From assembly GCA_030295235.1 (NCBI GenBank), contig AP026124.1:2108001-2172000 (forward strand): a DNA stretch of 64,000 bases, in the 5' to 3' direction. The stretch is from Fistulifera solaris. Its lineage: Eukaryota. A program made the position numbers and the translations under genes. Under the pieces are notes generated by a model that searched no databases, was not told where the DNA came from, and saw only the letters and a list, made by a program, of their open reading frames with translations. Within the stretch, counting starts at the first letter, position 1; every line of letters begins with the position of its first letter. Of the stretch, positions 52,908-57,578 are shown piece by piece.

Positions 52908-53856
52908 TTATTGCCAAAACGTGATTCCATCGTTCGGGACAAAGACACCCCGCCACCGAAGAATGGAGTGATGCGTATCACGGGCACCAAACATATCTTT
53001 TAACTGTTCTTCGGCAGCAAACAAAGCATCTTGTGCGAGTTGGACCGCCGCACGCGACCAGCTCGCACGCCGGTGACCTCCCCATTTAGGGGAGACGGCG
53101 GGCGGCCCATTCCGTGGCTCGTTGGTTGTCTTCCAAAGCCGCGTAGGCCACGACAATCCCCGACAAGGCACCCATATGCCACGGCTTGACGGCCAGAACA
53201 ATCAACAACATCTTCTCGGCCTCCAGCCATCGTTTCTGTTGAATCATCAGCGTGGCCAGGCGATGAATGGGCTCCACCCAGTACACTCCGTAATGCTGAA
53301 TGATCTTACGAAGTTCACGTTCGGCATCGTCCCATCGCGGACTGCCCTCTGCTATAATCTGTTCTACTTTATACAGTCGAGACGCCGCTTTGTTTCCCCG
53401 CTCTTGGCACCAAAGATCCGCGAGATCCGCGACACTATCGTCGCCTTTGGCTAGATTTTGCAATAACGTAATTTCCACAGATCGGCGTTCCCGTTCAAGA
53501 GTTGTCAAAAGTGGTGCTGGAGGTAATTCTACGTCGACTCGACTCGGTGGTGCATGAATCAGATCGGTGGTTGGCAATGTATCGAGAAAAGGAAGGACGG
53601 AATGCCATCCATTCGACGGAAAATCTTCCTCATCTCGAAAGGGATGCGCACTGATAGTCAACAAACTCTCCAAGCGCTTTCGAACTTCCTCGGCATCGAA
53701 GTGGTTGTTGTCATCGTCTGGGAGAGTGCTGAAAGACCTGGCCGATGACAGGAGCCGGAGTGACTGGAGTGTCGTCACGAGAAAAGCAAATACTATACAT
53801 TTGCCTGAGATAATAATTGTTAAAGGAAGATAAACCGACAACAACAGTCTTTTCAT
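52908..53856 (-). CDS. TPR-containing hypothetical protein with signal peptide; frameshift at ~53090
   Basis: WVEPIHRLATL...VLAVKPWHMGALSG TPR-like motif; signal ending VFA-F. Confidence 0.75.
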
Positions 53857-54456
53857 TTATTGAGTTGCAGGCAATGCGTCGTGTCAGCAAGATCCCAAGA
53901 AAAATTGTAGGCGTCGAACGGCAGAAAGATAAATTGAGTTAAATACAACGGAATCAATGATAGGTATTAATTGCAACAGCAATCGGCTTGCAGTCACCGC
54001 GCTGTCAAGAATGTGTTCCAAATTGACGGTTCATCTCAATGCTACGCGTTCTGCGCGTCTGAAAAAGAACAGAAAAGAACCACGGAGTTAGTACAGTATA
54101 ATAAAAGAACGCGGGTTTAAAATTCTACCCAGTACAAGATTCTACGTAGCGTCCACGACCACGCAGCATTTTAACTTTTAACGTAACCCTCTTCTACTAG
54201 GTACAGTCCGTGAGGCCTTGGCGCCGACAGTCACAGCGGTACAAGACCGAAGTGACGTCGAGAGCGAGAAACCACTTTGAACTTTGAAAATCAACAAGAC
54301 TGCTTTGCACGACATCACGGCAGGGTGCCAAAGCATTACTTTGTGTGTTGCTAACATGGTACTCTAGGAATTGATAATTGGTCCCTTCATATTTCAAATA
54401 GGCAGGAATAGAATTAACTTGCATACAATCTTCTTCAAGGAAGCGCACCAGCAAAT

Positions 54457-55586
54457 ATGCGCCTGACATGCAAAGGACTCTCTGCTTTCCTGTTGGCCGC
54501 AGCCGGCTGCTCTGCCTTTTCTCCACAATCTCGTTTGTTCGGCATGCACTATCCGTCGACACACGTTCATAAAGTGCAACATCTTGTCACAGCTCTGGCT
54601 TCCACATCATCCGAGAAAGCAACAGCTGCATCGTCCTCTCTTCCGGGTCCCAGTTTGGATGGCAAACGAGTCCTACCGTATCGTATTCTAGCAAGCTCCT
54701 TGAAAGGCCAACAGCCCGTAGCGGCGGTCTACGCGATCCTTGGCTCGGATTATCAACGCGGCCAGGAGGGTTGGAATGCCGCCATTCACGTTGGCATTTC
54801 ACAGGATTTGATGGCCGCCTTGGAAAGTCATGTCGAAAAGCACGACGGTCCCAGTGTGGCTCACGTGCGTGCCATTTCGTTTGCCGCGCCGCAACCGAAT
54901 GCCATGCAAAAATTGCTTCCGATTGGAAAGCATTGGCACGAGAAGCCGGTGCTTCTTTGCAGGATTGGGGTGATGATGTATTGGGGCATTTGTACGATGA
55001 TGATGACGATGACGACGATGATGATGACGAATTTGAGGATGATGTCCCAGGTGGAGACAATGTAGTCTCACCGTTCGAGTTGCCATCCGTCTCAGTTACC
55101 AAAGACGACGGAACATTTCTGGAATTGACAGTGGATAATGTGGATAAAGTCTTGGATGAAGTACGACCGTATTTAATAGCAGACGGAGGCAACGTAGCCG
55201 TCGATCGAGTGGACAGTGAGAGGGGGGATATTTATTTAAAGTTGGAGGGGGCATGTGGTTCTTGCCCATCTTCTACTGTAACCATGCAGATGGGAGTTGA
55301 GCGGGTTCTACGAGAGAACTTTTCCAATATCAATCAAGTCCTGCGCGTGGACGACGACCCATTCAAGCCCAAGGAATTAACATGGGGAGCAGTGGAACAG
55401 GAAGTGAAACGATTAGGCTCGGCCATTGTTGCCATGGGCGGAGTCATGAGATTACTGGATGTAGATGCGAGCACCGGTATTGTCAAACTCTTATTCAAGG
55501 GTCCGAAACGGGTTCAGCAAGGTCTGGAACTAGCCCTTCGTGATGTCGAGTACGTGACTGACGTTGTCTTCATCGAGGAAGAATGA
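54457..55586 (+). CDS. Plastid NFU-type Fe-S carrier with N-terminal GIY-YIG-like domain; frameshift at ~54910
   Basis: Presequence GCSA-F; VRPYLIADGGNV...LEGACGSCPSS NFU domain; second degenerate NFU domain without CxxC. Confidence 0.9.
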
Positions 55587-55714
55587 ACGAACAATGCCTT
55601 TTCTGTCCATGTATAACCCCAGGGAATTATGAAGTCATCTTCCTCCTGCTTTCTCCTACGTTCGGAACCTACATTATATTGAGTATTTTTCAAAAACATT
55701 TAGAGCAGCTTTAT

Positions 55715-56337
55715 TTATTTCTTTTTCTTGGATTGGATTTCTTCTGTACCCGTCATACCACTAAATAGTTGACCCAACATCTTGCTGGGATCCTTTTGTA
55801 GCTCCATTTGCTTCTTCATCTGTTCTCTCTCTTCCGGATCTAAACCTTCCATCATTTTGGGCATCCAGAACATAAGAATCACACTCACACCCATCATGAG
55901 AAACATGGGATTTTTCAGGAGCGAAAAATAGAAAATCCGCGTCGCGGCTCAAAATACTCATACTTGGCCACGGCAGTTAACACCAATGGATATTTGGCAA
56001 ACTGCTTCTTGGCTCCGGGGTATAAATATTCGAGACACTTGGGGTCCGCGCTTTCGTCTTCCAGTAATTGAATTTTGATTTGCGGGAAGTGATAGACCGA
56101 AGAGAATACATCAAGTTGATGGATACCCGGAGGAACATTGTACAGCGCAAACGAACCGTCGGCACGTGAATAGGTCGCAATTTCCCCGTGATTCAGAACA
56201 ATGCGACTGGTGAGATTGAATGCGAGTCCGTCGGTGAATTGAAGTCTTCCTTCCAGCGTCTTGGCGGCTACGACGGCCGATGAAAGGCACCAAAGAAGAA
56301 GGATACGAGTAAATGATACTTTCGATGATAATATCAT
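55715..56337 (-). CDS. EMC7: ER membrane protein complex subunit 7; frameshift at ~55920
   Basis: Signal peptide, DGSFALYNVPPG, YFEPR, KNPMFLMM..MPKMM..DPE. Confidence 0.9.
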
Positions 56338-56590
56338 GGTTAGCTACAAATTGAATTGGAAGAATAACCAAGCTTTATTCTTTATTTGTTACTCCGTATT
56401 TTTTTGTTTGTGTGCAAAGTTTTCGGTCTCTTGCGCGTGCGACAGACGGACGATATTGCTCGTGACTCACTCGTGAATCGATGCAACAAACAAAACAAAA
56501 CAAAACAAAACAAAAAAAGAACACGCGCAAAACCACTTCGCAACTATATTCGAGTAATAAAAAATGAATAGCATCTGAAAACATTTATAC

Positions 56591-57578
56591 ATGGAGAACT
56601 ACAAAGTAATCAAAGCATTGGGCCAGGGAACATGGGGTGTCGTTCACATGGCCACGCAAATCGCTACCGGTCGGATTGTTGCCATCAAGAAGATCAAATC
56701 CGAACGACCCGAAGAGGGTATCAACTTTACTGCCGTGAGAGAGATCAAATTATTGCGAGAATTCAAACACGAAAACATCATCGAGTTAGTTGACTGCTTT
56801 ACCACACCTGATTTGGGTGTCTGCCTCGTATACGAGTGTGCGTTTACCGACCTGGAAAAAATCCTATCGAACAAAGCCATTCCTGTGTCTCTTTCGGATG
56901 TCAAGCAGCATATGAAATCCCTGTTGACCGCTATAGCAGCGTGTCATGATCGGTGGATATTACACCGCGATTTGAAACCCGGTAAGAAAAATGATAATCA
57001 TTTTTGGAGTTGAAATGCAACGCATATCTCTCATGCGCTGGATTTCAGACAACATGTTGTTTCTAAAAGACGGAACCATGAAATTGGCAGATTTTGGTTT
57101 AGCGCGAATGTATGGTACGCCCAAACTACGTTTATCACCGCAAGCGATTACATTGTGGTACAAACCTCCGGAGCTTCTTCTTGGTTCGACGGAATATTCC
57201 TCCGCGGCAGATATGTGGAGCGTAGGATGTATCTTTGCCGAACTCTTACTCCGCCGTCCGTTTTTGCAAGGCAAACAAACGGATATATCTCAGCTGGATA
57301 CTATATTTACTGTCTTTGGTACTCCGAACGAATCCAACTGGCCCGATTACGAAACACTACCACTTTGTACCCGAGGCCTTGAATGGGACGATACATCGCC
57401 GATCCCGTTCGATGAGATCTTTACGGCTGCTCCGAAAGACGCCATTTCGTTGCTAAGATCCATTATGGTATTGGATCCCAATATGCGTTTCACGGCGTCT
57501 CAGTGTTTAGATCATCCATATTTTTCCAACGATCCACCACCGACACCTAAGGGAAAACTTGTGCTGTCCGCAGGGTAA
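56591..57578 (+). CDS. CDK7: CDK-activating kinase CDK7/CDKD; intron 56982-57048
   Basis: EGINFTAVREIKLLRE cyclin-binding helix, WILHRDLKP, DFGLAR. Confidence 0.92.

Follow-up and report, generated by a model that had tools for sequence, protein, structure and literature searches.

A likely plastid NFU-type Fe-S carrier with an N-terminal GRXS16-type, GIY-YIG-like domain in the diatom Fistulifera solaris

Proteins that join a GIY-YIG-like domain to NFU domains are known from the green lineage. Couturier et al. 2013 described algal proteins of the NFU1-3 type, whose N-terminal GIY-YIG domain, similar to the one in GRXS16, is followed by two Nfu domains, reported the same fusion in Physcomitrella and Picea, and suggested two ancestral cyanobacterial genes. 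Their survey covered the green-lineage genomes of Phytozome, and the words diatom, Phaeodactylum and Thalassiosira are absent from its text. According to Przybyla-Toscano et al. 2021 (PMC8003979), Chlamydomonas NFU1 combines GIY-YIG and NFU without a second NFU domain, and a GIY-YIG-containing NFU1 is found across many microalgae and, dicots excepted, in land plants. In the plain-text rendering of Table 2 of that paper, NFU1 is marked ‘+’ for Ectocarpus and Nannochloropsis and is blank for Phaeodactylum, for which the survey lists a single plastid NFU, named NFU2. The initial annotation of the locus described here was aware of no description of this architecture; it was already in print in Couturier et al. 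2013 and, as Chlamydomonas NFU1, in PMC8003979. The independent fusion proposed in that annotation likewise repeats a published suggestion. Full-text literature searches of partial coverage found no paper on a GIY-YIG-NFU fusion in diatoms, and the diatom protein is a known protein type in a new lineage.

The gene lies in a window of 64,000 nucleotides, the whole stretch of F. solaris DNA that was analyzed (assembly GCA_030295235.1, contig AP026124.1, positions 2,108,001 to 2,172,000). Between 54457 and 55586, the window holds two overlapping open frames on the plus strand, the second offset by +2 relative to the first, and its translation contains every feature named in the initial annotation where that annotation had placed it. 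The first frame begins at the ATG at 54457 with a hydrophobic start (AAAGCSAF/SP), continues through a Ser/Thr/Ala-rich stretch into the motifs of the N-domain (AAVYAIL...IHVGISQDL...ESH...VRAISFAAPQPNAMQK, ~54718–54912), and terminates in PQPNAMQK. The second resumes with IASDWK in the +2 frame and encodes an Asp/Glu run, an NFU domain containing GACGSC, and a Cys-less C-terminal repeat before the stop codon at 55584–55586. Adding one A to the run of five at 54908–54912 joins the two frames into one intronless coding region of 376 codons (54457..55586, plus strand).

The break in the A-run is an assembly or sequencing error and not a gene boundary. We aligned the public contigs of four runs (X1–X4, taken as RNA by guess only) to positions 54300–55800. 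Only X1 and X2 cover the A-run, with one contig each, and both place an extra A behind 54907 at full depth (16.9 of 16.9 in X1 and 36.8 of 36.8 in X2), which is the sole insertion or deletion that the contigs of the four runs report for 54300–55800. Record 1 of X1 spans 54300–54986 and record 11 of X2 spans 54855–55172, each with a single gap, the added A, so an uninterrupted stretch leads from the presequence through the N-domain into the beginning of the NFU domain. An intron in place of the frameshift was considered and rejected: a single inserted A is exactly what separates the contigs from the window, and no joint is reported inside the coding region. A deposited F. solaris protein (P0003, 376 aa, source name FisN_12Hh140) contains both halves at 99–100% identity, and in P0003 as in seven more homologues (P0004–P0010) PNAMQK-IASDW, or its equivalent, is unbroken. 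P0004 is the homeologous copy, with a protein 86% identical, and its frame is continuous, as are those of 42 other full-length homologues. The frameshift suspected at the ~54910 A-run is thereby repaired, and the proposed fusion of a GIY-YIG-like domain with a CxxC NFU and a degenerate NFU stands in one frame in P0003. Were the frameshift real, the locus would be a pseudogene or two genes, one for an orphan GIY-YIG-like protein and one for an NFU devoid of presequence. The window itself has only five A at 54908–54912, so the frames do not join in it, but the sixth A in both covering contigs, the unbroken P0003, and the single frame of the homeologue and its 42 companions make this reading very unlikely; the downstream frame, moreover, has neither a Met of its own nor a presequence ahead of the NFU domain.

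At 55143–55572, the four runs contain a second set of contigs, with 9–18 differences from the window per 118–430 bases, beside identical contigs, and this set fits the homeologous copy (P0004) in the same organism. One X1 contig skips 109 bases at 55601–55711, past the NFU stop codon and before the gene that follows. With TC..CT at its ends, the skipped segment does not qualify as a canonical intron in either orientation, and an indel distinguishing the two gene copies may account for it. The neighboring genes are unrelated, one EMC7-like and one for a protein kinase. On the minus strand, two adjacent ORF pieces at 55715–56343, separated near 55915–55950 by a short intron or other frame break, probably make up one gene, for ER membrane complex subunit 7: PF09430, the EMC7 beta-sandwich domain, is found in the upstream piece (55918–56343) at E 4.1e-17. 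On the plus strand, an ORF at 56579–57013 opens a protein kinase domain (PF00069, E 1.7e-28) that is CDK-like by eye and runs past the examined stretch. A 256-aa ORF at 53086–53856 on the minus strand has a hydrophobic N-terminus and matches no Pfam family at E up to 1e-3.

The full-length AF2 model, built from 44 homologues, has a mean pLDDT of 80.2 and displays three folded units (residues 67–170, 226–297, and 310–373) with disordered segments between them. Its pTM of 0.41 means that the arrangement of the domains and their contacts are not readable from the model. Ahead of the first unit, residues 1–66 (54457..54654, plus strand) have the makeup of a bipartite plastid presequence: a hydrophobic, signal-peptide-like segment, Phe21 in a SAF motif, and a Ser/Thr/Ala-rich stretch, with pLDDT below 55 over residues 1–60. 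At least 90% of the 44 full-length homologues keep Phe21, and we take Phe21/SAF to be the diatom plastid signal-peptide cleavage motif of the ASAFAP type. By this motif, the protein is likely nucleus-encoded and plastid-targeted. Between the first and second units, residues 171–228 (54966..55139, plus strand) form an acidic linker that is predicted to be disordered (pLDDT 45–58 over residues 181–220), with its Asp/Glu run at ~54996–55043. A D/E run of at least four residues is present in 41 of the 42 representatives of at least 330 aa with a strict G[AS]CxSC motif. At the nucleotide level, the GAT/GAC repeat encoding the poly-Asp linker (54994–55031) draws many unrelated, loose-ended contigs, so depth is uninformative there.

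The C-terminal half is built as the initial annotation read it, an NFU domain with CGSC followed by a degenerate second NFU. NFU domain 1 (residues 229–295, 55140..55340, plus strand) carries the cluster-binding CxxC within GACGSC, with Cys267 at 55254–55256 and Cys270 at 55263–55265, and neither cysteine varies among the full-length homologues (44 of 44). Its match to PF01106 (NifU) scores 83.3 bits (E 1.3e-23, cut-off 27) and 81.2 bits on P0003; PF01106 is the only Pfam family found in the protein, and in P0003 it covers one stretch only. NFU domain 2 (residues 310–373, 55383..55574, plus strand) is Cys-less and degenerate, and it was recognized from its AF2 fold and by Foldseek. Its predicted elements (helix 310–326, strands 330–337 and 342–348, helix 351–362, strand 369–373) follow the alpha-beta-beta-alpha-beta order of domain 1. 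A sequence search of the PDB matches the C-terminal half to Arabidopsis NFU2/CnfU (2Z51) at E 1.5e-26, and Foldseek aligns 158 columns with the two-domain, 154-residue 2Z51 (E 1.7e-12, 36% identity). The repeated fold and the 158-column match indicate that the degenerate second domain is real, and Pfam finds a second NifU stretch in the homologues P0113, P0138, P0141, and P0069.

The N-domain (residues 67–170, ~105 aa, 54655..54965, plus strand) spans the frameshift and was assigned from its AF2 model and its matches to 2LWF, the N-terminal domain of Arabidopsis GRXS16. Modeled alone, it reaches pLDDT 85.6 and pTM 0.78, and within the full-length model its pLDDT is ~95. Single sequences and narrow profiles say little about it: a PDB search with the N-terminal half alone returned nothing, profile A1 (eight diatom N-domains) produced chance-level matches only against the PDB and did not reach 2LWF, and Pfam gave no credible family for the N-terminal half or the eight diatom N-domains. 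The GIY-YIG family PF01541 matches none of these eight at E up to 10; among 136 representative homologues it matches one (P0125), below threshold (E 9.8e-4; 19.8 bits, cut-off 22.6). Profile A2, made from 23 N-domain sequences that include divergent non-diatom members and no glutaredoxin, is more telling. Searched against 177,635 PDB sequences, it finds 2LWF at E 2.5e-4, the only match below E 0.1, and aligns profile positions 4–105 with chain residues 8–96. One divergent member, P0085, reaches 2LWF by itself at E 7.8e-4, and another, P0113, does not match it significantly on its own (E 1.5). In the A2 alignment, VYA-, -VG-[ST]-x-[DN]-L, and Trp157 fall in the same register in the N-domain and 2LWF, at an overall identity of only 14–18%.

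Structural searches with the N-domain model point to the same protein. Foldseek, one of the checks proposed in the initial annotation, ranks 2LWF first (E 1.3e-2, TM 0.65/0.63), followed by UvrC GIY-YIG domains. VIA-align superposes 2LWF over 91 residues with a Z of 11.8 and an rmsd of 1.8 Å, then gives six UvrC N-domain entries at Z 7.4–7.8 and two R.Eco29kI entries at Z 6.4–6.6, with the next fold at 3.3. In the ESM Atlas, the neighbors of residues 66–180 are cyanobacterial ‘GIY-YIG nuclease family’ clusters (TM 0.75–0.77), a Chlorophyta NifU-containing cluster of ~370 aa (TM 0.77), streptophyte GRXS16 (TM 0.67), a chlorophyte glutaredoxin cluster, and MSH1. The AF2 training postdates the release of 2LWF, which makes the model less than fully independent of that structure; the sequence-profile result is independent. 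It could be argued that the likeness to GRXS16 and GIY-YIG arose by chance or by convergence on a small alpha/beta fold, and that the N-domain is an unrelated, lineage-specific domain: Pfam is empty for the eight diatom N-domains, the diatom-only profile missed 2LWF, the Foldseek E-value is only 1.3e-2, and a note of the VIA tool itself states that Z values of ~7–8 are frequent for unrelated models. We consider such a coincidence exceedingly improbable, since 2LWF alone stands at Z 11.8, the independent A2 profile is significant for 2LWF only, P0085 finds it unaided, and the conserved motifs keep their register. As judged from sequence profile and predicted fold, the N-domain and the N-terminal domain of GRXS16 are homologous, beyond chance, as the initial annotation had proposed.

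The family is well populated. The A1 search of 1.84 billion representatives, clusters at 50% identity, returned 136 proteins at E up to 1e-3, most of them with diatom-style presequences by eye. PF01106 is found in 64 of the 136, and most of the others are short fragments. A homologue search with residues 62–180 had given only five close diatom proteins, and a search with A2, confined to proteins of at least 316 aa and thus placing GRXS16-sized proteins outside its scope, added only P0147–P0149. No glutaredoxin Pfam match or CGFS motif is present in the diatom protein or the 136 representatives, so the A1 search alone provides no link to GRXS16. Membership extends beyond diatoms. P0138 is from Tetraparma gracilis, according to its source name. 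P0113, which the diatom-only profile finds at E 8.2e-6, combines the N-domain with a CxxC NFU domain and a further NifU stretch. The Chlorophyta NifU cluster that also neighbors the diatom N-domain is the one nearest to P0113 in the Atlas, with a score of 0.96 and 210 shared features, and P0113 is a probable chlorophyte member. We also noted that the non-diatom members P0085, P0076, P0096, P0082, and P0138 have an extra conserved stretch upstream of the N-domain (...RLEDRNVP-GH-GLHD-LYGDGE-H...) and a basic helix in the linker (...KMRRAMAD..L.D...), both absent from the diatom proteins.

To examine the catalytic residues, we aligned 80 near-complete N-domains to the A2 model and tallied the columns. 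The Tyr of the GIY motif (Tyr92) is retained as Y in 71 of the 80 (F in 6, V in 3). The first position of the second motif is H in 30, Y in 28, F in 10, and other residues in 12, and the Gly of this motif is kept in 67. We placed the column of the canonical catalytic Arg by the G-x-T-x-[ND]-L-x-x-R register, which we take to be that of GIY-YIG enzymes. A single sequence has R there; the rest have T (30), S (20), A (12), D (10), or other residues (7), and the F. solaris protein has Ala121. Two candidate metal-binding Glu columns after Met150 are mixed as well, with Q in 36 and E in 25 at one and E in 29 and D in 21 at the other; Gln151 and Lys152 occupy them here. Other positions are nearly fixed: Arg138 in 77, Met150 in 78, and Trp157 in 79 of the 80. 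The conserved surface set of the N-domain consists of Arg138, Ser141, Phe142, Pro145, Met150, and Trp157. The column of the 2LWF cysteine (in ELCGSVKV) holds Cys in six of the 80 (P0030, P0069, P0076, P0085, P0096, and the Tetraparma protein P0138) and Val, Ile, or Ala in the diatom sequences.

The canonical Arg is absent and neither candidate Glu position is acidic in this protein, so, on the residues present, the N-domain is probably not a working nuclease. In an alternative reading, it would cleave plastid DNA or RNA as a functional GIY-YIG endonuclease, with the NFU part supplying metal or coupling the activity to Fe-S or redox status. The nuclease idea was raised by Couturier et al. 2013, who propose coordination of the catalytic metal as a possible task of the Nfu domain, and, for GRXS16, by Liu et al. 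2013, to whom the reviews that cite this work credit in-vitro endonuclease activity of the GRXS16 N-domain. The GRXS16 domain is equally degenerate, so this reported activity means that loss of the Arg is no proof of inactivity, and the predicted GIY-YIG fold and the Tyr kept in 71 of 80 sequences also favor an active enzyme. We nevertheless regard a working nuclease as unlikely. The canonical Arg survives in one sequence of 80, the two candidate Glu positions lack an acidic residue here, the second Tyr position varies among H, Y, and F without constraint, and Pfam does not recognize the domain as GIY-YIG at threshold. A 2026 review, in addition, finds it unclear what the EN domain of GRXS16 does physiologically and states that a proposed inter-domain disulfide could not be confirmed. 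The strong constraint on Arg138, Met150, and Trp157 (each in at least 77 of 80), together with the missing canonical Arg, argues for a conserved non-nuclease role. We lean modestly toward a non-catalytic N-domain that would have a binding or regulatory function directed at a partner protein or a nucleic acid, on a long acidic tether.

Taken as a whole, we are fairly confident that the gene encodes a plastid NFU-type Fe-S carrier, made of a CxxC NFU and a degenerate NFU unit, preceded by an N-terminal domain with the GIY-YIG fold as in GRXS16. By analogy with Arabidopsis NFU2, the NFU half would take over a cluster from the SUF scaffold on the CxxC pair of a dimer and then hand it to client apoproteins, and the N-domain would act as the binding or regulatory module held by the acidic tether. 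A bolder combination would make this protein the sole stromal NFU of diatoms, dock its N-domain at the nucleoid or ribosome, and posit an ancestral Cys redox switch lost in diatoms; we consider the combination quite unlikely. Its first element fits the single plastid NFU (NFU2) that PMC8003979 gives for Phaeodactylum, in which case the N-domain would have been overlooked there. If the combination were true, every [4Fe-4S] cluster that diatom plastids deliver by way of NFU would travel on a carrier with a tethered degenerate nuclease fold. The N-domain could then dock the carrier on the plastid nucleoid or ribosome, where clusters would be inserted into clients encoded by the plastid, and the Cys of GRXS16, Tetraparma, and other non-diatom members would be the ancestral redox switch.

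The diatom fusion is an incremental addition and not a new architecture, and what is new is modest: the placement of the family in Tetraparma and, widely, in diatoms; a two-NFU form outside the green lineage; the apparent loss of the catalytic Arg across the family; and a Cys column that GRXS16 and family members appear to have in common. The same module on the NFU of diatoms and of their sister group widens the comparative base, and genetically tractable diatoms offer a test system for a GIY-YIG-like domain on plastid Fe-S carriers. The results also suggest that the blank Phaeodactylum entry for NFU1 in the plain-text table of PMC8003979 deserves re-examination.

Compared with the known systems, the protein shares different parts with each. 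From the canonical GIY-YIG nucleases it has the fold, as in the N-terminal domain of UvrC (1YCZ/1YD4) and in R.Eco29kI (3MX4), with Z 6.4–7.8 over 81–97 residues, and the retained Tyr of the first motif; it differs from them in that 79 of 80 N-domains in its family are without the catalytic Arg and PF01541 stays below threshold. The GRXS16 N-domain (2LWF) is the closest match by profile and by structure and has the same degenerate motifs, including a Ser at the canonical Arg column of the A2 alignment, so GRXS16 appears to share the loss of the catalytic Arg. In GRXS16, however, this domain is fused to a CGFS glutaredoxin, whereas in the diatom protein it is fused to NFU; with the domain in common but no CGFS motif or glutaredoxin, the diatom protein is not a GRXS16. 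Arabidopsis NFU2/CnfU (2Z51) has the same succession of a CxxC NFU domain and a Cys-less NFU domain, but only a transit peptide in front of them, without the GIY-YIG-like domain or the acidic linker. The green-lineage GIY-YIG-NFU proteins are alike in placing a GIY-YIG-like N-domain before a CxxC NFU in a plastid Fe-S carrier, as in Chlamydomonas NFU1 (Cre17.g710800), and those of the NFU1-3 type of Couturier et al. 2013 also have two Nfu domains. The diatom protein possesses the second, degenerate NFU domain that Chlamydomonas NFU1 lacks according to PMC8003979, and it is set apart from the green-lineage forms by the bipartite presequence of a secondary plastid and by its long poly-Asp linker.
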